From the NCBI RefSeq assembly GCF_002310835.1, contig NZ_CP011042.1, positions 90,001 through 122,000 on the forward strand: a stretch of 32,000 nt of DNA. Direction: 5' to 3'. How positions within the stretch are numbered: position 1 is the first letter of the stretch; each line of letters opens with the position of its first letter. The position numbers and the translations under genes are program-made. The DNA is from Pseudoalteromonas tetraodonis. GTDB taxonomy: Bacteria > Pseudomonadota > Gammaproteobacteria > Enterobacterales > Alteromonadaceae. Positions 3,111-31,461 of this stretch are shown in pieces. A model generated the notes under the pieces. It had not been told where the DNA came from and did not search any database. It was given only the letters and a program-made list of their open reading frames with translations.

Positions 3111-3820
3111 AAGCAATAAACCTATTTGCAGCCACTGTATTAATTGGTTTTTGTTTATTAATACCTAAGCTGGCTTATGCTGATGGCATAGTGGTTGATA
3201 AAGTTTATCATCCTTATGTGTTGCCGTTTGAGCGTGAGCTAGAGTGGCGGCTTGTGTCACATCAAACCGACAGTGGTAATATTTTAGCGCAGCGCGTTGG
3301 CTTAGGCGGCGCAATTAACGACACCATGGCATTGGAAGGCTATTTAGTGGGCGAGCGCGATGATAATGGTGACTTTGGCTTGCAAGCGTATGAGTTAGAA
3401 CTTCGTTGGCAGTTAATAGAGCAGGGCAGGCTATGGGCTGATTGGGGCGCGTTATTTGAATTTGAAAAACAGCATGACGCCGACGCATACGAAGCAACCA
3501 CCGGTTTTGTGATTGAAAAAGAGTTTGGTCGTGCAAGTCTCACTATGAATGCATTTTTAGTGTACGAGTGGGGCCAAGATATACAAAATGAGTGGGAAAG
3601 CGAATTTAGAGCGCAATATCGCTACCGCTATTTGTCTGCTTTTCAGCCCGCGGTTGAGGTTTATCTTGGCGAAGACTTTGTCGGTATTGGCCCCGGATTT
3701 ATAGGGTTACATCGCTTTGATGGACAAAAACAATTAAAGTGGGAAGCCGGTTTTATTACTGAAATCAGCCAGTCAGAGAAAAATCATAGCTTTAGAATGG
3801 CACTAGAATTTGAATTTTAA
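3107..3820 (+). CDS. Small outer-membrane beta-barrel-like protein
   Basis: 237 aa. Signal peptide ends ...IPKLAYA/DG. Alternating aromatic/polar strand-like segments. C-terminus ...ALEFEF has the terminal-Phe OMP signature. ATGA start/stop overlap with the upstream gene (3107-3110). Confidence 0.6.
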   Translation: MKAINLFAATVLIGFCLLIPKLAYADGIVVDKVYHPYVLPFERELEWRLVSHQTDSGNILAQRVGLGGAINDTMALEGYLVGERDDNGDFGLQAYELELRWQLIEQGRLWADWGALFEFEKQHDADAYEATTGFVIEKEFGRASLTMNAFLVYEWGQDIQNEWESEFRAQYRYRYLSAFQPAVEVYLGEDFVGIGPGFIGLHRFDGQKQLKWEAGFITEISQSEKNHSFRMALEFEF

Positions 3821-3892: not shown

Positions 3893-3920
3893 TTGACTTG
3901 AGTCTGTAACTCTATATAGT
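3893..3920 (+). promoter_or_regulatory. Candidate sigma70 promoter of the cold-shock gene
   Basis: -35 TTGACT (3893-3898), 16-nt spacer, -10 TATAGT (3915-3920). This implies a ~150-nt 5' UTR, as known for cspA-type mRNAs. Confidence 0.45.
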
Positions 3921-4080
3921 AGTCCGCAGCTAGAAAGAAAGCATGATAATTTATAAATCTCCATTTCGTTGTTGTATAAGTAATACTTGTAGTACCGTCC
4001 TGAAGTTTTTAAGTACCATCTCATTTTTTGCTACACCGCCCATTAGGGCACAATTTAATTTTTATATCAGGAATAATACT

Positions 4081-4290
4081 ATGTCTAACATCGTATCAGG
4101 TACAGTTAAGTGGTTCAACGAGTCTAAAGGTTTTGGTTTCATCGAGCAAGAAAATGGTCCAGACGTTTTCGCACATTTCTCAGCAATCAAAAGCGAAGGT
4201 TTCAAAACTTTAGCTGAAGGTCAACGTGTAGAGTTCACTCTTTCACAAGGTCAAAAAGGTCCTCAAGCTGATAACATCACAGCTCTATAA
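4081..4290 (+). CDS. Cold-shock protein, CspA family
   Basis: 69 aa from ATG 4081: [36 protein letters not shown]..., with RNP1 KGFGFI and RNP2 VFAHF. The 3943 start in the ORF track is a non-homologous upstream extension. Confidence 0.95.
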
Positions 4291-4310
4291 TTTTACTTTT
4301 AAGTAAAATG

Positions 4311-4337
4311 AAAAAAAGCGCTTAAGGCGCTTTTTTT
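4311..4337 (+). terminator. Rho-independent terminator after the cold-shock gene
   Basis: AAAAAAAGCGC-TTAAG-GCGCTTTTTTT: perfect hairpin followed by a T-run. Confidence 0.8.
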
Positions 4338-4380
4338 GTGTCTAAAATTTAAGAATATCTCCCCACCATCTGTAAATTTA

Positions 4381-9331: not shown

Positions 9332-10033
9332 ATGAGTACTCCGCATATCAGTGCAAACGTAGGTGATTTTGCCGAAACAGTATTAATGCCAGGCGATCCG
9401 CTACGCGCACAATATATTGCTGAAAACTTTTTAGATGATGCAGTGCAAGTAACCGGCGTACGTAACATGTACGGCTTTACTGGAACTTACAAAGGTAAGC
9501 CAGTGAGCATTATGGGTTCTGGCATGGGCATTCCTTCAATGTCAATTTATGCTCGTGAGCTTATTGTCAGTTTTGGCGTTAAAAATATTATTCGTATAGG
9601 TACCTGTGGTGGTATTGGTAGCGATATTAAAATTCGCGACGTAATTTTTGCACAAGGTGCAAGCACAGATTCAAACGTAAATCGTGCCCGCGTTCGTGGC
9701 ACTGACTTTGCTGCCATTGCTAACTTTGACCTACTTTTAAACGGCGTAAATGCAGCTAAAGATTTAGGTATTGATGCAAAAGTAGGCAACGTATTTACTA
9801 CCGATACTTTTTATCAAGCAGACGACACGTTTTATAAAGATCTAGACAAACTAGGTGTACTCGCTGTTGATATGGAAACAGCTGGCTTATACGGCGTAGC
9901 AGCAGAATACGGTGCAAAAGCAATGGCATTATTTACCGTCAGTGATCATGTAATCACCGGCGAAGCAACACCTGCAGATGAGCGTCAAACCACGTTCAAC
10001 GAAATGGTTAAAATTGCCCTAGAGTCAATTTAA
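9332..10033 (+). CDS. deoD: Purine nucleoside phosphorylase, DeoD type
   Basis: 233 aa. [61 protein letters not shown] and [16 protein letters not shown] are collinear with E. coli DeoD. Confidence 0.95.
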
Positions 10034-10120
10034 TTAATCTCTTAGGTTAACAACAGTTCCTTGGTAACGTATTCACTAAGTTTTGGAGACACGCCCAAAG
10101 TGAAGTGAGACTAAACCCCC

Positions 10121-10147
10121 AAAGCCGCATTTTATGCGGCTTTTTTT
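10121..10147 (+). terminator. Rho-independent terminator after deoD
   Basis: AAAGCCGCAT-TTT-ATGCGGCTTT followed by a T-run. Confidence 0.8.
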
Positions 10148-10173
10148 ATGCCTGAAATTTAGGTGTGAGATTC

Positions 10174-10334
10174 GGGCCTCGGGGTGCGGGCCACGGGTTT
10201 CGAGCTACGGGCTTTAGGTTTCAGGTTCTAGGTTAAAGGTCAAAGGTTAAAGGTCAAAGGTTTTAGCAGTAGCTCGCAGCTCGTCACTCGAAGCCCGTTG
10301 TCTTCTCATTTACTCTCATTCACTTCTCTGTGTT
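10174..10334. repeat. Degenerate tandem array with a 7-bp period
   Basis: In one phase it reads gggcctc ggggtgc gggccac gggtttc gagctac gggcttt aggtttc aggttct aggttaa aggtcaa aggttaa aggtcaa aggtttt, then decays (gctcgca gctcgtc actcgaa ...). Confidence 0.7.
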
Positions 10335-10365
10335 TAAACAAGAAATTAGACTTAGACGTTAGATA

Positions 10366-10451
10366 AAATGCGCGAGGTAAACTTCCGCCTACTGATATGG
10401 TTACCTTCTAAATTTATTTTAGGCGGGGCTTTATGCCGCGCAAGGTCATTA
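10366..10451. repeat. REP-like imperfect palindrome, copy 1
   Basis: GCGCGAGGTAAACTTCCGCCTAC ... TAGGCGGGGCTTTATGCCGCGC. An 86-bp unit repeated at 10632-10717. Confidence 0.8.
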
Positions 10452-10631
10452 ATTTAAAAAATATTTACCACCGAGAACACTGAGTTTACAGAGAAATGCT
10501 TAAAAAATACCAATCTACCTCTGTGTAGCGCAAAGCGCCTCGGAACCCTCTGTGGTGAAAAATTGTTTTTAGCAGTAAGTGCCTTTCGTAGCAGCGATTT
10601 TATATCGCGTCAGGTCTAGGATATTAAACAC

Positions 10632-10717
10632 AAATGCGCGAGGTAAACTCCCGCCTACTGATATGGTTAACTTCTGAATTTACTGTAGGCGGAGCTTTAT
10701 GCCGCGCAAGGTCATTA
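10632..10717. repeat. REP-like imperfect palindrome, copy 2
   Basis: GCGCGAGGTAAACTCCCGCCTAC ... GTAGGCGGAGCTTTATGCCGCGC. About 6-7 differences from copy 1. The same GCGCGAGGTAAACTC motif recurs inverted at about 25782-25800 and 26223-26241. Confidence 0.8.
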
Positions 10718-10769
10718 TTCACAAAGAGGACAAAGAGACGCTGCGCTAAAAGAGTAGATTAAAGGTCTC

Positions 10770-10824
10770 AGGTTTTAGCACTAGCTCGATACTCGTCACT
10801 CGTAGCTCGCTGTCTTCTCATTTA
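10770..10824. repeat. 55-bp direct copy of 10258-10312 (heptamer-derived segment)
   Basis: aggttttagcaCtagctcgATActcgtcactcgTagcTcgCtgtcttctcattta differs from the 10258-10312 copy at 7 positions, counted by eye. Confidence 0.75.
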
Positions 10825-10904
10825 TTTCCCTGTCAGTATTTATAACTTAATGCTAATGTTTAAGTTATAAAACTTGCTTTTAAAATGAACCACTTTAAAG
10901 TTTT

Positions 10905-11510
10905 AGCTGATAGCTGATAGCTGATAGCTGATAGCTGATAGCTGATAGCTGATAGCTGATAGCTGATAGCTGATAGCTGATAGCTGATAGCTGATAGCTG
11001 ATAGCTGATAGCTGATAGCTGATAGCTGATAGCTGATAGCTGATAGCTGATAGCTGATAGCTGATAGCTGATAGCTGATAGCTGATAGCTGATAGCTGAT
11101 AGCTGATAGCTGATAGCTGATAGCTGATAGCTGATAGCTGATAGCTGATAGCTGATAGCTGATAGCTGATAGCTGATAGCTGATAGCTGATAGCTGATAG
11201 CTGATAGCTGATAGCTGATAGCTGATAGCTGATAGCTGATAGCTGATAGCTGATAGCTGATAGCTGATAGCTGATAGCTGATAGCTGATAGCTGATAGCT
11301 GATAGCTGATAGCTGATAGCTGATAGCTGATAGCTGATAGCTGATAGCTGATAGCTGATAGCTGATAGCTGATAGCTGATAGCTGATAGCTGATAGCTGA
11401 TAGCTGATAGCTGATAGCTGATAGCTGATAGCTGATAGCTGATAGCTGATAGCTGATAGCTGATAGCTGATAGCTGATAGCTGATAGCTGATAGCTGATA
11501 GCTGATAGCT
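10905..11510. repeat. Perfect heptanucleotide microsatellite (AGCTGAT)n, ~86.5 copies, 606 bp
   Basis: Uninterrupted agctgat units from 10905 to 11510, with no variant unit seen by eye. Ends 28 bp upstream of the fpr ATG. Confidence 0.97.
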
Positions 11511-11538
11511 AAAACACGTTTTACACTCTGGAGTAATT

Positions 11539-12282
11539 ATGTCTAATTGGATTGATGCCACAGTAAAGTCAGTTAAATGGTGGAATGAATCGTTATTTAG
11601 CTTAACGGTTAACGCCGATGTAGAACCGTTTAAAGCAGGGCAATTTACAAAGCTTTCTGTTATGGACGGTGAAAAACGCATTGCTCGTGCTTACTCGTAT
11701 GTTAACGCACCAGATGATCCAAATTTAGAATTTTATTTAATTAATGTAGTCGATGGCCAATTGTCATCGCATTTAGCACAACTTACCCCAGGTGACACTG
11801 TACTAATAGAGCGCCGTGCTAGCGGTTTTTTTACCCTTGACGAAGTGCCAGCGAGTGAACAACTTTGGATGCTTAGCACCGGCACCGCTATTGGCCCGTT
11901 TTTATCAATATTGCAGCAAAGTGAGGTATGGCAAAAATACAAACATATCAACTTAGTGCATGGGGTGCGCCTAAATAGCGATTTAAGCTATCAGGAGCTA
12001 ATTAATAAGTTATTAAAGGCTCATCCTGGGCAGCTTAATTATGTGCCAGTAGTTAGCCGTGAGGAGCCTTTACAAGGTTTAGCAGGGCGAATAACCACAG
12101 TGATAAAAAATAACGCGCTATCTGAACATGTGGGGCTGTGTGCTACCCCCAATAATGCACAGTTTATGTTGTGTGGTAATCCACAAATGGTTAAAGATAC
12201 CAGTGAGTTATTAGTGGCTCAAAACTATAAGCGTAATCGTCGAAAAGAGCCGGGGCATATTACGGTTGAGCAGTATTGGTAA
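11539..12282 (+). CDS. fpr: Ferredoxin/flavodoxin-NADP+ reductase
   Basis: 247 aa. FKAGQFTKL, RAYSYVNAPDDPNLEFYLI, WMLSTGTAIGPFLSIL, MLCGNPQMVKDT and a C-terminal ...EQYW are collinear with E. coli Fpr. Confidence 0.93.
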   Translation: MSNWIDATVKSVKWWNESLFSLTVNADVEPFKAGQFTKLSVMDGEKRIARAYSYVNAPDDPNLEFYLINVVDGQLSSHLAQLTPGDTVLIERRASGFFTLDEVPASEQLWMLSTGTAIGPFLSILQQSEVWQKYKHINLVHGVRLNSDLSYQELINKLLKAHPGQLNYVPVVSREEPLQGLAGRITTVIKNNALSEHVGLCATPNNAQFMLCGNPQMVKDTSELLVAQNYKRNRRKEPGHITVEQYW

Positions 12283-12372
12283 TGAGCTATAACGCTATAA
12301 TAACTATCTCATGAGGGTAAAATTTGCTATGTTGCGCGTTAATTGCATTTTGTCTTTGTACTTAGGAAAACC

Positions 12373-13074
12373 ATGAAACCTTCATTCATTATATATGCGT
12401 GTTTATTCGCCGCTTTCACATTAAACTGTCATGCTATAGAGCAATCGGCATCATCAAACAATGCTGAACTGACACAGCCAGAAAAAGTACAGCCGCAACA
12501 AGATGCACTTGATACGTTAACTCAAGAGGCTAACATACCTAAACAACCCGATGTAAAGAAAGTGACTGCAGATGATTCTAAAGTACTTGGCAGCGAATCA
12601 ACGAAGCCGGTTGAACAGCCTAAAAGTAAAGTAGATAAAGCACAAGCGGTCGTCGAGGCTGAGCAAGCAGTGACGCAAGCAAAAGAGGCACTTACAGCAA
12701 GGCAACAAGCCAAAGCAAAACAGTCTCGTGAGTCACTTGCTGTTATAGAGCAATTAGTTAAAGCCTACAACGCGCGAAACATTGAAGAATTTATTCGTAT
12801 GTATGATGAAGATGTTGAGTTTTATATTTTCCCGAATGAGCTATTATTTAAAGGTAAAGAAAAATTAATTGCGCGTTATGGCATTATGTTTAAAAAGCTA
12901 AAGTGTCTTCACTCATCACCTATTAAGCGTATTGTGCATGGTGACATTGTGATTGACCATGAGCTATCAGAAACCTGCTCTAACGATCCGAACGTGATAG
13001 ATAAACGTTCAGAGCTTATTTCAAGCTATCAAATTAAAGATGGCAAAGTGGTTAGGGTATTATTTTTTAGGTAA
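12373..13074 (+). CDS. Secreted protein with low-complexity linker and NTF2/SnoaL-like C-terminal domain
   Basis: ATG 12373 is preceded by AGGAAAA, and a signal peptide MKPSFIIYACLFAAFTLNCHA follows. A Q/A/K-rich region comes next, then ...VKAYNARNIEEFIRMYDEDVEFY... The 12343 TTG start in the ORF track is less likely. Confidence 0.6.
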   Translation: MKPSFIIYACLFAAFTLNCHAIEQSASSNNAELTQPEKVQPQQDALDTLTQEANIPKQPDVKKVTADDSKVLGSESTKPVEQPKSKVDKAQAVVEAEQAVTQAKEALTARQQAKAKQSRESLAVIEQLVKAYNARNIEEFIRMYDEDVEFYIFPNELLFKGKEKLIARYGIMFKKLKCLHSSPIKRIVHGDIVIDHELSETCSNDPNVIDKRSELISSYQIKDGKVVRVLFFR

Positions 13075-13083
13075 TTATTAATT

Positions 13084-13404
13084 ATGCAGCTAAGTGACGA
13101 GAAAAAAATTCGTGTAATGTATCGTGTAGAGCCTGGCTGTTTAGGCCCTGAGGGCGCAGACCACATTGAAGACTTTTGTCGCTTTGCGAACAAGCATATT
13201 AAGTCGCCTTATTATGCGCAGTTATTATTTTTACCTCGATACGATAAGCAAAAAGATGAGCGGCAATACAGCGTTAAAAACCGCAACTTATCTCAAGTGC
13301 AGGCTAAAGCGTATTTAAATCATTTTGAAATCAACATAGAAGACTTTGAAGAGCAGCTCGACGAGCTGCTTACTAAGTCAATAGACTTATACTTTAAACG
13401 CTAA
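13084..13404 (+). CDS. Hypothetical cytoplasmic protein (106 aa)
   Basis: An intact ORF 9 nt after the preceding gene, on the same strand. No family recognised. Confidence 0.5.
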   Translation: MQLSDEKKIRVMYRVEPGCLGPEGADHIEDFCRFANKHIKSPYYAQLLFLPRYDKQKDERQYSVKNRNLSQVQAKAYLNHFEINIEDFEEQLDELLTKSIDLYFKR

Positions 13405-15044: not shown

Positions 15045-15315
15045 ATTAGGGTCTGTTGACTTTTAAGGTTAAATTTGCAGTAGTCTGTTTGGTATTTAGG
15101 CAAGGCAGAGCCTATGTGGTGTGGTTATTCCCCATAAATAGGCGATAACGCAGCATCAATTCCAAACAGGCGCTGCCCGAAGGGTTCTGCCCAGGGGCGA
15201 TTTACTCTTTGTTGCTCGGTTTTGACTTAGCCCACTAGGTTACAAACCTCGCGCCGCGATTAAACCGCCCCTAGTTTGAACGAATTTTAATCCACAAAGG
15301 TCAACAGACCCTAAT
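15045..15315. mobile_element. 271-bp non-coding element with perfect 16-bp terminal inverted repeats
   Basis: ATTAGGGTCTGTTGAC at 15045-15060 and its exact reverse complement GTCAACAGACCCTAAT at 15300-15315. A partial relative lies at 13402-13490. Confidence 0.7.
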
Positions 15316-17640: not shown

Positions 17641-17724
17641 AGGTTAAAGGTTAAAGGTTAAAGGTTAAAGGTTAAAGGTTAAAGGTTAAAGGTCACGAGC
17701 TGCGGGCTGCGAGGTGCGAGTAAA
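17641..17724. repeat. Heptamer array: (AGGTTAA)x7 followed by 5 degenerate heptamers
   Basis: Seven exact aggttaa units (17641-17689), then aggtcac gagctgc gggctgc gaggtgc gagtaaa in the same phase. Confidence 0.9.
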
Positions 17725-17940
17725 ATGCAGTGTCTATAAAATCGCTGCTGCAGGATAGTAGTTGGCTTTTTTATTTCCTCTAAAAGCGCAGCGTCTCTTA
17801 ATCTCTGTGGTGAATAAATAACTTAAAACCTATTTGCACAAAGAGCAAAGAATGAGAGCAAACAAAAAATATAGTTTTTCTTTGCCTTTTTTATAAATAA
17901 ATTACCAATTGCGTTTGAATTGATACCAAGCAAAATTCTG

Positions 17941-18010
17941 CCGAACCCCGAACCCCGAACCCCGAACCCCGAACCCCGAACCCCGAACCCCGAACCCCGA
18001 ACCCCGAACC
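17941..18010. repeat. Heptamer array (CCGAACC)x10, equal to (GGTTCGG)x10 on the minus strand
   Basis: Ten exact units spanning 17941-18010. Confidence 0.95.
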
Positions 18011-18023
18011 CAAATTACAGGCA

Positions 18024-25711: not shown

Positions 25712-25983
25712 GCGCTTTAACTTGTAGTCGCTGAGCTTGCTCGCGCGAAAGCGCAGCTTTTAAATTTGTAGGTCGTGCCGTAGGCGAGAGTTTACCTCGC
25801 GCTTTTAAAGTGAAGGAATTGGCTTGAGCCGTGATTTATATATGATTTTGGGAAAGGGATTAAAAACCTTTATTCGAGGTTCTATCGCGTTGGCGATGGC
25901 AACCAAAGAGAGGCTGCCGCCGACCTCTCTCTGGACTCTCTCGGCGCACCCGAGGATCACACTGTGTCCTCAAGTTAAAAATT
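25712..25983. repeat. ~272-bp intergenic repeat, direct copy 1 (REP-like GTAG palindromes plus a structured module)
   Basis: Aligns with 26150-26422 at an offset of 438 bp. Contains TTGTAG(G/T)C motifs and GTAGGCGAGAGTTTACCTCGCGC, the inverse of the 10.4-kb REP arm. Confidence 0.85.
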
Positions 25984-26068
25984 GATGTGAACGTAATCGC
26001 CGTGTATTCGCCATCCATGGCGAAGTCACGGCTTAACTTGCATCCATGCAAGTGATTACTCATCAATT
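25885..26068. repeat. 184-bp structured module, left arm of the long inverted repeat
   Basis: Its reverse complement aligns over its full length with 31278-31461. Three internal hairpins: 25903-25934, 26007-26024 and 26036-26053. Confidence 0.85.
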
Positions 26069-26149
26069 TATAACTTTTGGGTGTGATCACGGGGAATTGG
26101 AGTGTGCTGGTAGATTGGTGTTTATGAATGTAGGCGGGAATTTATATCA

Positions 26150-26433: not shown

Positions 26434-27990
26434 ATGAGTTGTATATGCGAAGTTCAGAATTGTAATTTTGATACTTTTAAACAAAGTAGCATGTGTGTTT
26501 TACATATGGAGAAAAAAAATCTAAATTCTAAAGAGCTAAATTGCGTTGCTAAAGATTTTGATAATAAGCTTGTGTCATATGTTATTGACTACTTAGATAA
26601 GCACGAAGAAAAAACAGCACAGTCACTCAATGATAATGACTTGAAAAGTTACCTTTTAGAAAATACCGAAGTACACTCTTTTCCCCAAATCAGAATAAAC
26701 GATAGGTTAAAACACGCTATTACTTTTGATCACATCAGCTTTCCAAAAACTGAGAGTTTCACTGGATTTAACTTCATAAAAATATTAAATAAAATTAAAA
26801 AGATTCACTTTAATTACTGCTTTTTTGAATGTAATTATTTTAAACTCAAGGACACTCAAACTTTTTATCAAGATTGTACTTTTCTAAATCGGTGGGATGT
26901 GGGTAAGACAGATATATTAGCAAACGAAAATAGTGTGCTCTTTCAAGATTGTGAATTTCAAGAAGATGTGAGCATTAGCAAACAAAGCCCTTTAGAGTTC
27001 AGTTTATTTAATAATTGTAAGTTCCTTAAAACACTTGAGCTATCGAATCAGTTAATTAACTCCTCACCTTTTAATAATACCGATAAAGTCGATTTGAAAT
27101 GTTCAAAATTAAAAATAGAAAATTGTATATTTTCAGCTAAGTTTTTGTTCAACAATACAAAGCTCGATGAAGTTATTATCAAAGATTCTATATTTGAAGA
27201 AAAATTCGAGTTCAAAGAGAACTTCGTAGATAAATTTGAAATAATAAATTCAAATTTCAAGAAGTTATTTGATGCATATAAAACAAAATTTATAAACTTT
27301 AGATCATTTAAAAGTATTTACGATGACTTTGTAGGTTTTGAAAAATGTCAGTTTGGTATTTCTGAAAAAAATAGCGAAGAAGTAGGCTCAGTATCAAGTT
27401 TTACTTATACAACGTTTATGAGCTTTACTAATTTTAGAAATACGAAGTTTAATTCAGGTTTGGATCTTAAAAATACTAACTTAAAAGAACCACCAAACTT
27501 TTTAAATACAGAGTTGTACACTAAGTTTACTAATCGAGAAACTTTCAGAGTAATAAAAGATTCATTTGATAAGATCGGCAATCATATAGAAGCTAATCGA
27601 TTTTTTGTTGGTGAAATGCAGAAATATAGAGAAGAATTAAAATTAAAAGAAGGTTGGTCGCAAGAAAAGGTTATTTTCCATTTAAATTATTTGGTATCAG
27701 ATTTTGGAAGTAGTTATGTTAGACCTATAATGTGGATACTGTTAACTCTTTATGTATTTGATTTATTAGTAATAGGCTATGAAAAAAATCTACTTTATAA
27801 AGTTGTACCCATTTACAACCAAGAAATAGCTGCTGTCGCTGGATTCTTAAATAGTATTGCATCATATGCTTTACCTTTTAAAAAATTTCTTTTACCAGGT
27901 ATGGAGCTAATTAGTTTAGTTTTTTATATCATAATCATTAGCCTAGTTTGGCAGGCTGTTAATGCATTAAAAAGACATACCAAAAGGTAG
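26434..27990 (+). CDS. AT-rich gene for a membrane-anchored protein: N-terminal Cys cluster + ~20-25-aa beta-helix/pentapeptide-like repeats + C-terminal TM helices
   Basis: 518 aa. N-terminus C3-x-C5-x4-C10-x10-C21-xx-H24. Repeated F.(D/N)C.F-type units (FYQDCTF, LFQDCEF, LFNNCKF, IENCIF, IKDSIF, IINSNF, FEKCQF). Hydrophobic helices at about aa 430-449, 465-482 and 490-511. AAGGA RBS. Markedly lower G+C than its neighbours (15 G+C in the 60 nt at 27181-27240). Confidence 0.75.
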   Translation: MSCICEVQNCNFDTFKQSSMCVLHMEKKNLNSKELNCVAKDFDNKLVSYVIDYLDKHEEKTAQSLNDNDLKSYLLENTEVHSFPQIRINDRLKHAITFDHISFPKTESFTGFNFIKILNKIKKIHFNYCFFECNYFKLKDTQTFYQDCTFLNRWDVGKTDILANENSVLFQDCEFQEDVSISKQSPLEFSLFNNCKFLKTLELSNQLINSSPFNNTDKVDLKCSKLKIENCIFSAKFLFNNTKLDEVIIKDSIFEEKFEFKENFVDKFEIINSNFKKLFDAYKTKFINFRSFKSIYDDFVGFEKCQFGISEKNSEEVGSVSSFTYTTFMSFTNFRNTKFNSGLDLKNTNLKEPPNFLNTELYTKFTNRETFRVIKDSFDKIGNHIEANRFFVGEMQKYREELKLKEGWSQEKVIFHLNYLVSDFGSSYVRPIMWILLTLYVFDLLVIGYEKNLLYKVVPIYNQEIAAVAGFLNSIASYALPFKKFLLPGMELISLVFYIIIISLVWQAVNALKRHTKR

Positions 27991-27999
27991 GTTTTTTTA

Positions 28000-30900
28000 T
28001 CACCCAACCGCTAATTTCCCAGCCTCGTGCCACATTTCACTTGGCATGGGGTTGGTTAGTTCCCACGTTATATTCATCGGCTGGCTGCCGTTGTGGCTTT
28101 GGTATTTAACCTCGCCGTAGTTTACAAATCCCATAGTTCGGCCGTTTTCGTCTTTGCCCTGTTCGCGCACAAATAACAGGATGGTTTTGCCTGTTTTTTG
28201 GTGTTGCAAGTAACTCAAACCTCGGCCGTGTTCTGGGCGGGCGCTATTTTGCGTTTGCCAATGGAACAGGGTAGGGCTGATTGCGTAGTCGTGATACAAC
28301 GTAGTGGGTGAATAGCTTTTTTCGCATTTATTCAGCGTTACAAATAACAGCTCGAGGTTTTGGTTTTTAAATTCTAAAACGCCTTCGCGGGCGGTCGATT
28401 TTTTATCGAACGTGTGCGCGCCAAACGCGGCCAGTATTTGTTGGCGCGTGTAGCGGCTGTGTAATTTTACTGGGTGATTAGGTAAGCACGTTAAATCGCT
28501 TTCTTGCTGGTAAATACGGTTTATTAAAAGCGTAATTACTTGCGCGAGTTCCTGCTGTAGCTCTTTGTGTTTAAGTGCTTGTAAGCTTTGCTCAAGCGTT
28601 TTAAACCCTAAACTTGTGCCTGTGGTATCCCAAAAGTTGTAATGCGCCATAAGCGCGTACTGCTGGTTTTGCGCTGTTGGGGTAAAGTTAAAGTCGTTTT
28701 TACATAAATCACGTAAAAAGCACAAGTAACTGAGTGAGTCGCAGCCGAGTAACTGGGTGTTGATTGCGCGGTAATACGCGGCGTAAATGTCGGCTTGGTC
28801 TGCGAGTATTTCATCGCCTTTTAGCCAGTGCCAGCCGCCGAGTTTTTTATCTTTTGGTTTGTAAATATCTTCAAGCGTGACCTGTGGGTTTATATGTAAA
28901 AAGTTACTTAGCGTAAGGGCGTCATTGGTATGTTGCGAATAGCTATTTATCAGCTGCTGTAAACGGCGTTTAGTGTTTATGGCTTGCTGAATATTTTTTA
29001 GTATTGTTTGTTGTGTGCGCTTTTGTAGCTCTATGCGGCAACCCAGTGGTAAATGCGGGAAGTGATTTTCAATCTCGGTTTTTATTGGTTGGTTGCTTTT
29101 ACCAATCAATGCGCGGAACTTACTGGCAAAGTCGTATTCTGGTCGGGCGTTGCCTACAAAGTCGAGTACGGTACAGCATTGCTTTTGGCTGTTGTCGGGC
29201 AGGCGCATGCCACGGCCGAGTTGCTGTAAAAACAGCGTTAAGCTTTCAGTTGGGCGTAAAAATAAAAGTGTATCGACCTCTGGAATATCGACCCCTTCGT
29301 TAAAAATATCAACCACGCAGAGTATTTGTATTTCACCTTGTCGCAGTGCTTGTTGTTTGGCTGCGCGCTCATTGGTGTTTTTGCTGGTCAGCACATCGGC
29401 GTTTATACCTGCTAAGTTAAATTTAGACGCCATAAACTCTGCGTGTTTTTGGCTTACGCAAAATGCCAACGCTTTTATATCGTGAACATTAGTCACTATA
29501 TCAGCCAAGCTCGATATAATTTTGTTAGCGCGGCTGTTCTCCCCTGTATAAAGACTACTTAGCTCGCTTATATCGTAACGGCCACCACGCCATGTTATTT
29601 GGCTTAGGTCGATATCATCATCTAGTCCAAAGTATTGAAACGGGCATAAGTGGCGTTGGTTTATTGCCTCGGGTAAGCGAATTTCAGCGGCTATTACACC
29701 GCAAAAATCATCGAGTATATTTGCGCCATCTTGTCGCTCTGGTGTAGCAGTTAAACCAAGTAATATTGTGGGCGTAAAGTGGTTTAAAATAGCGCGATAA
29801 CTAGCTGCGCTTACGTGATGCACTTCATCTATCACTATGTAGTCGTAGTAATCGTGGGTTAGATTAAGCGATTCAATTTGGCTGTTTAATGTTTGGATTG
29901 ACGCAAATAATTGGTTGTAGTGTTGTGGCTTATAGTTACCTACCCACAGCTCACCAAAATCGTTGTTTTTAAGCACGCCACGGTAAGCGCTTTGCGCTTG
30001 TTTAAGTATTTCTTCGCGGTGGGCTACAAACAAAAAGTGTGCGTTTGGGTTTTTATCGTAAACAGTTTTAAAGTCGAACGCCGATATAATGGTTTTACCC
30101 GTGCCCGTTGCGGCAACCACTAAATTTTTAAAGCGATTATGCACGCTACGTTCAACGCTTAGTTTTTCTAAAATAGCGAGCTGGTGCGTTTTTGGTGTTA
30201 TATCAAAATAAAACTGGCTACTTGCTTGGCCAACACCGCGTTGCTCATTAAGTGAATTTATGAGCTTTTCTTTACATTCAGCTTTGCCAGTAAATAGTTC
30301 GAAATCTGGCGATTGCCAGTAGGTTTCAAAGGTACTTTTGGTTTTAGCTATAATGTGCGGTATTTCTTGCGCGGTAATTTTTAAGTTCCACTCAAGGCCG
30401 CTGGTAAGCGCTGAATGCGACAAATTAGACGAGCCAATATAACCGGTATGAAAACCCGTATTACGCATAAACAAGTATGACTTTGCGTGTAAGCGCTCTT
30501 GCTGGTTGTTGTAACTAAGTTTTACTTCAGTGTTTGGTAGGTTTGCTAAAAACTCCACCGCTTTAGCATCCGTTGCGCCCATGTACGAGGTGGTAATAAC
30601 TTTGAGCTTATTGCCGCTTTTGGTAAAGGCTTCAAGCTCATTTTTAAATATGCGCAGCCCTGTCCATTTTATAAATGAGACAAGCCAGTAAATAGTGTCG
30701 GACGATTTAATCTCGCGCTTTAGCTCGGTTTCGAGCGATATACCTGCATTAGCACCGCTAAATAATTCGCTTTGTGTAAGCCCTGTTAGCGGAAAAATAT
30801 CGTGAGAGTAATCTTTAAGATTTGCAGCAATAGGGTTTTGAGTATTAAACAGTGCAGTAAGAATACGGCCTTGGCTGTCGATAAGGTTTTCATTGATCAG

Positions 30901-31152
30901 CTCGTCATCGCGGATATGATCTTTAAGCCACAGCACAAGGTTGTTTGCGAGGTTAATTTGCTCGTGCAAACGCTCGCTTGAATTAGGGATTGCATCAATG
31001 GCATGTTCAACCAGCTTGCCTAAAAAACGCGAAAGCCACGTAGCCGCCTCAGCCGATTCTAGTTGGCGTTCGCCCACATAAAATTGGTCACGATTTAAAT
31101 TTTGCTCAATTACTTGTGTAATTAACTGCTCGTAAATACCAATCTGTTGCAT
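28000..31152 (-). CDS. Fusion protein: N-terminal PLD/HKD-family nuclease + SF2 (ResIII/DEAH) helicase + C-terminal DUF3427-like domain
   Basis: 1050 aa. HKD motif LH222AK224SYLF...GSSNLS. Walker A AATGTGKT (347-354), motif II IDEVHH (441-446), motif III TATP, motif VI QQLGRGMR. The C-terminal ~150 aa (GVLEFKNQNLELLFVTLNK...YHDYAISPTLFHWQTQNS...) looks like DUF3427, from memory. AGGGAG lies 7 nt upstream of the ATG. Confidence 0.8.
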   Translation of the reverse strand: MQQIGIYEQLITQVIEQNLNRDQFYVGERQLESAEAATWLSRFLGKLVEHAIDAIPNSSERLHEQINLANNLVLWLKDHIRDDELINENLIDSQGRILTALFNTQNPIAANLKDYSHDIFPLTGLTQSELFSGANAGISLETELKREIKSSDTIYWLVSFIKWTGLRIFKNELEAFTKSGNKLKVITTSYMGATDAKAVEFLANLPNTEVKLSYNNQQERLHAKSYLFMRNTGFHTGYIGSSNLSHSALTSGLEWNLKITAQEIPHIIAKTKSTFETYWQSPDFELFTGKAECKEKLINSLNEQRGVGQASSQFYFDITPKTHQLAILEKLSVERSVHNRFKNLVVAATGTGKTIISAFDFKTVYDKNPNAHFLFVAHREEILKQAQSAYRGVLKNNDFGELWVGNYKPQHYNQLFASIQTLNSQIESLNLTHDYYDYIVIDEVHHVSAASYRAILNHFTPTILLGLTATPERQDGANILDDFCGVIAAEIRLPEAINQRHLCPFQYFGLDDDIDLSQITWRGGRYDISELSSLYTGENSRANKIISSLADIVTNVHDIKALAFCVSQKHAEFMASKFNLAGINADVLTSKNTNERAAKQQALRQGEIQILCVVDIFNEGVDIPEVDTLLFLRPTESLTLFLQQLGRGMRLPDNSQKQCCTVLDFVGNARPEYDFASKFRALIGKSNQPIKTEIENHFPHLPLGCRIELQKRTQQTILKNIQQAINTKRRLQQLINSYSQHTNDALTLSNFLHINPQVTLEDIYKPKDKKLGGWHWLKGDEILADQADIYAAYYRAINTQLLGCDSLSYLCFLRDLCKNDFNFTPTAQNQQYALMAHYNFWDTTGTSLGFKTLEQSLQALKHKELQQELAQVITLLINRIYQQESDLTCLPNHPVKLHSRYTRQQILAAFGAHTFDKKSTAREGVLEFKNQNLELLFVTLNKCEKSYSPTTLYHDYAISPTLFHWQTQNSARPEHGRGLSYLQHQKTGKTILLFVREQGKDENGRTMGFVNYGEVKYQSHNGSQPMNITWELTNPMPSEMWHEAGKLAVG

Positions 31153-31277
31153 TAAATCGCTCCCTGTTTGCGAGCATTCAGTTTACTAAAAAATGCAATG
31201 TAAACAAGCATTAACTCATTATTGAATTAAAGGCAGCTGTTAAGATAATTCCCCCGTCATTTTGCCCGAAAAGACTC

Positions 31278-31461
31278 AATTGATGAGTAATTAATTGCAT
31301 GGAAGCAATTAAAGACGTGACTTCGCCATGGACGGCGAATACACGGCGTTTACGTTCATATCAATTTAGGCTTTGAGGAAAGTGCAAAATGCTCGGGGCG
31401 CCGAGAGATTCCAAAGAGAAGTCGGCGGTTACTTCTCTTTGGTTGCCGTCGCCAACGCGAC
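31278..31461. repeat. 184-bp structured module, right (inverted) arm
   Basis: Reverse complement of 25885-26068, at roughly 75-85 % identity by eye. Hairpins preserved at 31291-31312, 31322-31339 and 31411-31442. Confidence 0.85.

Follow-up and report, generated by a model that had tools for sequence, protein, structure and literature searches.

A 32,000-nucleotide stretch of Pseudoalteromonas tetraodonis DNA (contig NZ_CP011042.1, positions 90,001 to 122,000; in the following simply the window) carries a perfect array of 86.7 copies of the heptanucleotide TAGCTGA directly upstream of fpr, a gene for a ferredoxin-NADP(+) reductase. The array occupies 607 bp of the forward strand at 10904-11510, and its 3' end lies 28 nt short of the fpr ATG at 11539. 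We consider it likely that this tract is a hypermutable variable-number tandem repeat (VNTR), and that it represents an extreme case of a genus-wide tendency towards repeats of period 7 which is not specific to fpr. The mechanism we propose is replication slippage, which would have enlarged a proto-repeat, TAGCTGATAGCT, located between the promoter region of fpr and its ribosome-binding site. Whole units of 7 nt would be gained and lost much faster than the flanks acquire point changes, in a genus that would generally be prone to expanding period-7 units in intergenic DNA.

The tract, its alleles and its origin

Tandem Repeats Finder described the array with a period of 7, 86.7 copies, 100% matches, 0% indels and a score of 1214. 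The pure, uninterrupted 7-bp tract reported by the initial annotation at 10905-11510, which is the AGCTGAT phase of the same array, is therefore real. By our own estimate, 14 consecutive matches at a lag of 7 are expected about 1e-4 times per 32 kb. Because the run of lag-7 matches in the tract is about 600 long, the array is beyond chance. Thus, with a unit within the range of 1-11 nt, a head-to-tail arrangement and a length far above random expectation, the tract has the properties of a long simple sequence repeat. The rest of the window contains just three single copies of TAGCTGA and one of TCAGCTA, and no second TAGCTGA array.

The two strands of the tract differ in their coding properties. 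All three plus-strand frames contain 57-58 stop codons each, and the minus strand has none, so that every frame of (TCAGCTA)n is open. A reading frame of 273 codons for (ISYQLSA)n results on the minus strand (10860-11681), where it overlaps the start of fpr on the opposite strand. A record look-up of this product returned nothing. A coding role was rejected, given the overlap with fpr, the missing record and the fact that the frame is due solely to the all-open (TCAGCTA)n; this agrees with the initial annotation, which had already called the frame an artefact. The unit contains no run of three or more G, the feature of heptamers that form G-quadruplexes. A search of 10000-11600 against Rfam 15 gave nothing at gathering score. 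Matches to Trp and Phe leaders and to miRNA families, which came up when E-value thresholds were applied, were dismissed, as they were far under threshold and located on a terminator and on the repeat itself.

To survey alleles of the tract, contigs encoding an identical or 99%-identical Fpr were collected and the DNA upstream was read. Alleles that span the tract completely were found at the same site in 12 other assemblies (Fpr 99-100% identical). In ten of the 12 they are uninterrupted and have the same phase and flanks, with 10.7, 11.7, 13.7, 14.7, 14.7, 15.7, 16.7, 16.7, 19.7 and 34.7 copies. The allele of P. tetraodonis MQS005 is interrupted (7.3 copies, ACTA, 18.9 copies), and that of a noisy long-read assembly has about 18 units. 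Differences between alleles are whole units, and the window allele shares the x.7 phase and the flanks with the uninterrupted ones. It is 2.5 times as long as the next longest full-span allele. Together with the sister lineage described below, relatives thus range from 1.7 to 86.7 copies within conserved flanks, as is characteristic of a VNTR.

An allele of 243 bp was assembled in JQFL01. Incomplete contigs extend this picture. Seven of them end inside the tract, and in three the break comes after exactly 127 bp of pure repeat; in contigs of several other samples, 76-136 bp of pure repeat precede the break. Breaks at exactly 127 bp are those of a de Bruijn assembler that meets a repeat longer than its k-mer, which indicates that alleles above about 130 bp are common in nature. 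A metagenome scan with the left junction plus three units returned one contig, which was cut inside the tract.

The speed of change is best seen in pairs of nearly identical strains. Between loci L002 and L006, 5772 bp of downstream sequence are free of mismatches, but the tracts have 11.7 and 16.7 copies. In the case of L001 and L004, with 2 mismatches in about 5.8 kb, the copy numbers are 16.7 and 15.7. Since copy number differs between near-identical strains, change in the tract is far quicker than in the sequence around it. The copy-number hypervariability that the initial annotation had predicted is borne out by this comparison of isolates, in which 10.7 to 86.7 copies occur in whole-unit steps and even near-identical strains differ.

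More distant relatives point to how the tract arose. In a sister lineage with a 94% identical Fpr (five contigs, L129-L133), the same flanks enclose only TAGCTGATAGCT, that is 1.7 copies. At the corresponding position, P. translucida KMM 520, whose Fpr is 82% identical, carries TAGCCGATAATA, and no tract was found at the site in species whose Fpr is 70-78% identical. Judging from the 1.7 copies of the sister lineage and the absence in distant species, the tract is a recent, lineage-specific expansion of an older two-unit proto-repeat. As relatives manage with 1.7 or 0 copies, fpr functions in them without a long tract. One of the distant loci (L234, Fpr 70% identical) has a different array, (TGACCGC)4.1, at about 906-934, some 70 nt upstream of fpr, as well as degenerate AGCTATC, AGCTTTC and AGCCATC units after the deoD terminator. 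The spacer between deoD and fpr has therefore gained heptamer arrays independently.

Stable DNA hairpins were tested as a driver of the expansion and rejected. A DNA strand of the tract forms just 4-bp mini-hairpins at AGCT and has no special stability (z = +0.4); therefore, stable DNA hairpins are not needed for expansion.

Heptamer repeats in the window and beyond

The window contains two further perfect heptamer arrays, both on the forward strand. The first, (AGGTTAA)7.6 at 17641-17693, stands directly after the terminator of katG and is polymorphic between strains, as contigs with an identical KatG carry 5.6, 7.6, 9.4 or 12.4 copies. The second, (CCGAACC)10.1 at 17941-18011, adjoins the terminator of the convergent ABC-F gene, and three contigs end inside it. 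Because arrays that follow terminators are as variable between strains as the fpr tract, instability is not specific to fpr. Contig ends in or beside heptamer arrays are frequent and were seen in several of the fpr contigs and in most of the katG contigs.

Apart from perfect arrays, three degenerate stretches of the window reach 0.43-0.77 in lag-7 autocorrelation, for which control sequence gave 0.26. A mosaic of GGGCCTC, AGGTTAA/AGGTCAA, AGCTCGN and other units at 10165-10335 (forward; 0.53 compared to 0.26 in controls) is located just after the deoD terminator, and its unit numbers vary between strains. Another mosaic, of AGCTCGN and CACTCGN units, at 10755-10835 (forward; 0.43), lies upstream of the conserved promoter box described below and is likewise of strain-variable length. 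Degenerate CGAGCTG units occupy 17696-17720, directly beside the katG and ABC-F terminators and between the two arrays there.

When the window and 47 kb of DNA from other species of Pseudoalteromonas were scanned, all perfect arrays of at least 20 bp had period 7, with three in the window and six in the other species, built from nine different units; none had a period of 2-6 or 8-12. Unrelated units that are expanded in this sample of the genus include AGGTTAA, CCGAACC, GGTGCTA, GCTAGGT, TTCTAGG and TGACCGC. A literature search with the genus name returned no description of heptamer arrays in Pseudoalteromonas.

The TAGCTGA unit itself is widespread. A scan of genome contigs found (TAGCTGA)3 or longer in at least 120 stretches from many phyla, the longest array among the matches listed having about 19 copies; the species of the window was not among these matches. 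Within the genus, a forward array of 17.1 copies stands 61 nt before a PAS-GGDEF gene in P. shioyasakiensis (L099), and in P. prydzensis an array of 18.7 copies lies at the end of a contig, adjoining (TTCTAGG)11.3. The 134 tracts among the matches listed, from many phyla, showed no orientation bias towards gene starts, with 45 forward and 53 reverse by crude calls of open reading frames. The distance statistics of this test are unusable, as a forward tract itself supplies the stop codon that defines the crude start of the frame. Among other units, a perfect (TAGGCAA)47 in Moorena producens 3L (L124, 5553-5882), which stands among many heptamer arrays, is the longest other heptamer array in the fetched loci. 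Altogether, the longest heptamer arrays met in the cited papers or in the fetched loci reach about half the length of the window array. The latter is ordinary in kind and notable for its length.

Other repeats were encountered in the same intergenic regions. A structured element of about 85 nt, AAATGCGCGAGGTAAAC...CCGCCTAC-loop-GTAGGCGG...GCCGCGCAAGGTCATTA, occurs twice in the deoD-fpr spacer (10368-10450 and 10635-10720) and, in other strains, inverted and downstream of katG (L151, about 3470-3560). It has no Rfam match and looks like a small mobile repeat or one of the repetitive extragenic palindromic type. Upstream of katG, an element of 271 bp at 15045-15315 with 29-nt terminal inverted repeats (ATTAGGGTCTGTTGAC...GTCAACAGACCCTAAT) resembles a miniature inverted-repeat transposable element; in contig L153 it adjoins different upstream DNA. 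Dispersed intergenic modules (10468-10560, 10722-10756 and 17770-17830), for example TTACCACCGAGAACAC...CTCTGTGGTGAA and CACAAAGAGGACAAAGAGACGCTGCGCTAAAAGAG, are found in several spacers and in other Pseudoalteromonas species. From strain to strain, the deoD-fpr spacer forms a different patchwork of these repeat modules, each present or absent.

Probable promoter and leader of fpr, and its surroundings

The gene deoD, upstream of fpr, has a strong intrinsic terminator of its own (a 10-bp stem followed by a T run at 10121-10143 on the forward strand, the one relevant outcome of a terminator scan of 10000-11600), and fpr therefore needs a separate promoter. A strict scan of 10000-11600 for the sigma-70 consensus gave no promoter-like site, versus 3.5 expected in shuffled sequence, and in particular no usable site within or after the tract. 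The position of the promoter was therefore approached by cross-species footprinting.

Alignment of the window with L129, L134, L135, L235 and L236 revealed an inverted repeat, TTATAACTTAA-N9-TTAAGTTATAA, at 10840-10870 on the forward strand. Its core, ACTTAATGCTAATGTTTAA, is conserved in front of fpr in other species of Pseudoalteromonas, including cases in which an ABC-F gene or an insertion sequence replaces deoD. From this conservation we regard the inverted repeat as a candidate for an operator of the fpr promoter or for an activator site. Further downstream on the same strand is the -10-like hexamer TAAAAT (10881-10886), with TATAAT at the matching place in L235 and L236; transcription from this hexamer would begin near 10893, 11 nt ahead of the tract. 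An alternative pair, TTGCTT (10874-10879) and TAAAGT (10896-10901) with a 16-nt spacer, abuts the first repeat unit. On the other side of the tract, the 28-nt segment up to the ATG (11511-11538, forward) is identical or differs by one base in all alleles of close relatives, and it includes the Shine-Dalgarno sequence GGAG at 11530-11533. The sole -10-like hexamer after the tract, TACACT at 11522-11527, is weak and has no -35 element. A start from it would fall inside the Shine-Dalgarno sequence, too close for a normal leader. As the conserved box and the -10-like hexamers stand upstream of the tract, transcription most likely starts at about 10893-10908, with the whole tract in the 5' leader of fpr. 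The initial annotation had placed the promoter in or before the tract and considered an (AGCUGAU)n leader; the footprint and the lack of a usable later promoter favour the upstream position and thus the leader.

Transcribed from such an upstream promoter, the tract would turn a 5' leader of about 55 nt into one of about 650 nt. In its RNA form, the tract is predicted to fold as one long hairpin of -337 kcal/mol (z = -24). In each unit, 6 of the 7 positions are paired, through the self-complementary AGCU and two G-U pairs, with an A-A mismatch left, which amounts to about 300 pairing positions. In a thermodynamic model of the leader, the repeat folds on itself at all modelled copy numbers, and the unpaired probability of the Shine-Dalgarno sequence is 0.71 at every one of them, from 1.7 to 86.7. 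We consequently rejected occlusion of the ribosome-binding site by the repeat; with a constant predicted exposure, translation control of this type is unlikely. An effect on fpr, if any, would be graded and could act via leader length, elongation or transcript stability, e.g. if RNase III cuts the double-stranded leader. With hmw1A of Haemophilus influenzae as a guide, longer alleles would be expected to lower fpr expression. We consider that such an effect would be incidental and not the reason for the existence of the tract.

The protein encoded by fpr (11539-12282, forward, 247 aa) matches NF008178 with an E value of 1e-90 and 303 bits, which is under the equivalog cut-off of 390; its close homologues in Pseudoalteromonas are named ferredoxin-NADP reductase. 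Identical Fpr proteins occur in assemblies of the P. tetraodonis group, including strain MQS005 (LYRQ, PMC4974307) and Pseudoalteromonas sp. DSM 26666. The locus is carried on a replicon of about 0.72 Mb (CP076085.1, CP152391.1). Gene order is nupC, udk, deoB, deoD, a spacer of 1505 bp, fpr, a SnoaL-like gene, a gene for 106 aa, a TPR gene on the opposite strand, katG and the ABC-F gene. Across Pseudoalteromonas species (L134, L135, L234, L235), fpr, the SnoaL_2-domain protein and the 106-aa protein (11539-13404) are kept together. The gene upstream of these three differs, being deoD, ABC-F, IS110 or Y1 transposases or an integrase-family gene. Conservation of the trio despite the varying upstream gene suggests a functional unit or operon.

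Elsewhere in the window, two TwoAYGGAY RNA motifs exceed the Rfam gathering threshold, at 25939-26104 on the reverse strand (65.6 bits) and at 31241-31408 on the forward strand (58.4 bits). Between them are a 518-aa open reading frame (26434-27990; GC content 0.27, no Pfam match) and a 1050-aa protein with PLD-nuclease, ResIII-helicase and DUF3427 domains (28000-31152), and the block flanked by the motifs may be a defence island. In addition, a full-length match to the cspA thermoregulator RNA (97.9 bits) at 3915-4340 on the forward strand lies over an open reading frame of 115 aa (3943-4290).

Known systems, competing explanations and significance

The nearest mechanistic parallel to the fpr tract, by analogy of layout, is the repeat of hmw1A and hmw2A in nontypeable H. 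influenzae. There, (ATCTTTC)n begins within the -10 box of promoter P2 and becomes part of the transcribed leader; 9-28 copies are found among isolates, and more repeats lead to less transcript (PMC2424069, PMC8262952). Both systems have a 7-nt unit, an array beside a -10-like hexamer, a 5' leader position (inferred at fpr), a weak promoter-like site after the array and whole-unit differences between isolates. In contrast, the products of the hmw genes are surface adhesins, made by a host-restricted pathogen, and variation in culture and effects on expression were demonstrated for these genes, whereas fpr encodes a cytoplasmic redox enzyme of a free-living marine bacterium. Its range is 1.7-86.7 copies, and its unit is self-complementary as RNA. 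A comparable case is uspA2 of Moraxella catarrhalis, for which the citing paper describes AGAT repeats in the 5' untranslated region, 6-23 copies depending on the strain, and a graded effect on expression, as opposed to on/off switching, with an optimum at 18 copies (Attia and Hansen 2006, via PMC4679880). It resembles fpr in having a simple repeat in the leader, putatively so at fpr, and a strain-dependent copy number, and it differs by its 4-nt unit, its product, a pathogen surface protein, and its demonstrated optimum.

In terms of sequence, the nearest parallel is the TAACTGA repeat of marine Beggiatoaceae, cyanobacteria and some Bacteroidetes (MacGregor 2015, PMC4679880). Candidatus Maribeggiatoa has 169 sets of TAACTGA with 2-6 copies each, single-base variants are rarely repeated, and the longest reported arrays have 43 copies (PMC4679880). 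TAGCTGA is one base off. As with TAACTGA, arrays are intergenic and forward, directly upstream of a start codon, both at fpr and in P. shioyasakiensis; all forward frames contain stops and the reverse frames are open; further heptamer arrays stand nearby, and contigs often break within arrays. Many different units expand here, and the 32-kb window, which shows one TAGCTGA array, twice the 43-copy length, and two perfect arrays of other units, would point away from many sets of the same unit as in TAACTGA genomes. A further group comprises the short tandemly repeated repetitive sequences of cyanobacteria and the intergenic heptamers of Xanthomonas (GGGAATC) and Nostoc (GGGGATT), where perfect arrays reach 26 units in Nostoc and 14 in Xanthomonas (Rehm et al. 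2015, PMC4692102). They have a genome-wide intergenic excess of period 7, as is indicated for Pseudoalteromonas too, and share with it a length and sequence that vary among close relatives; the Xanthomonas and Nostoc units are, however, G-rich and form G-quadruplexes, which TAGCTGA, not being G-rich, does not resemble. The period-7 pattern in Pseudoalteromonas is in line with the excess of heptanucleotides reported for some bacterial genomes. According to the papers that cite it, the study of Mrazek et al. (2007, via PMC4679880, PMC4692102), from which the definition of long simple sequence repeats comes, ascribed that excess to slippage of the polymerase, favoured at 7 nt.

Contingency loci typically concern surface structures, host interaction or restriction-modification genes. 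The initial annotation proposed fpr, as a gene of oxidative stress and redox metabolism, as a locus of this type. Variable copy number would then tune fpr in a way similar to hmw1A and hmw2A, and cells would differ in redox or oxidative-stress capacity. In favour of such a selected rheostat are the layout shared with hmw1A (PMC8262952), the large variation between strains in a simple repeat placed 28 nt before the ATG and downstream of the conserved box, the presence of katG in the neighbourhood and the tract in front of the regulatory GGDEF gene of P. shioyasakiensis. However, arrays just as variable follow terminators, where promoter tuning is impossible, the sister lineage and other species live with 1.7 or 0 copies, the 134 TAGCTGA tracts among the matches listed have no preferred orientation towards gene starts, and the ribosome-binding site is predicted to be equally exposed at all copy numbers modelled. 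In addition, a cytoplasmic ferredoxin-NADP(+) reductase is outside the usual gene classes. We thus find a selected contingency locus unlikely and do not follow the initial annotation on this point. A broader version, to which we attach a rather low probability, is that selection acts on the (UAGCUGA)n leader as an RNA element of tunable length, the double-stranded form of which would set the fate of the fpr mRNA, for example through RNase III or a repeat-binding protein, and that heptamer arrays across the Pseudoalteromonas genome serve as a heritable and rapidly adjustable expression dial. If true, this would be a free-living counterpart of the contingency loci of pathogens, and it might be related to TAACTGA-type repeats across phyla.

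Two other explanations concern the tract itself. Its length could be an artefact of assembly, over-extended or mis-polished, with a real allele of 10-35 copies as elsewhere; the gap of 2.5 times to the next longest full-span allele and the empty look-up by the tract-spanning reading frame would fit this. Short-read assemblers, however, collapse or break at such tracts and do not extend them, contigs of other samples that end after 76-136 bp of pure repeat imply natural alleles longer than a k-mer, the allele in JQFL01 was assembled through 243 bp, and the window allele has exactly the x.7 phase and flanks of the others. An artefact is consequently very improbable. Even less credence is given to a sequence-specific system, either a protein or RNA that recognises (UAGCUGA)n or (TAGCTGA)n and serves regulation after transcription or at the level of DNA, like a TAACTGA system, or a real (ISYQLSA)n protein from the minus strand. 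The single-base distance from TAACTGA, the shared contrast between stops in all forward frames and an open reverse strand, and the location right before a start codon (PMC4679880) speak for it, as do the recurrence of the unit in many phyla and its frequency in viral contigs, where (TAGCTGA)3 was found in 45 stretches versus 17, 10 and 1 for three composition-matched control units. Against it, many unrelated units expand equally in Pseudoalteromonas, the window has only single copies outside the tract, orientation is unbiased among the matches listed, and Rfam gave no match; in the case of the protein, the frame overlaps the fpr start and its product is not on record.

We therefore return to the hypermutable VNTR as the preferred explanation, against which several points should be weighed. 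The viral-contig excess of 2.6 to 45 times, together with the recurrence in many phyla, leaves room for a sequence-specific factor beyond slippage. The length of 86.7 copies is that of the assembly consensus as given, and allele sizes of 80-130 bp in short-read drafts have possibly been shaped in part by the assembler. Upstream of the tract, too, the strict consensus scan gave no promoter. Finally, the neutrality of the tract is argued from its context.

Heptanucleotide repeats are over-represented in some bacterial genomes and have been little studied beyond a few pathogens and cyanobacteria. On the practical side, heptamer arrays break short-read assemblies and generate spurious reading frames such as that of (ISYQLSA)n. 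In the case of fpr, they also provide a natural allelic series of 0, 1.7 and about 11 to 87 copies, in which the promoter region and the ribosome-binding site on either side of the repeat stay the same and the gene is well understood. This series could be used in a culturable marine bacterium to measure both how the length of a leader repeat relates to expression and at which rates period-7 slippage occurs.

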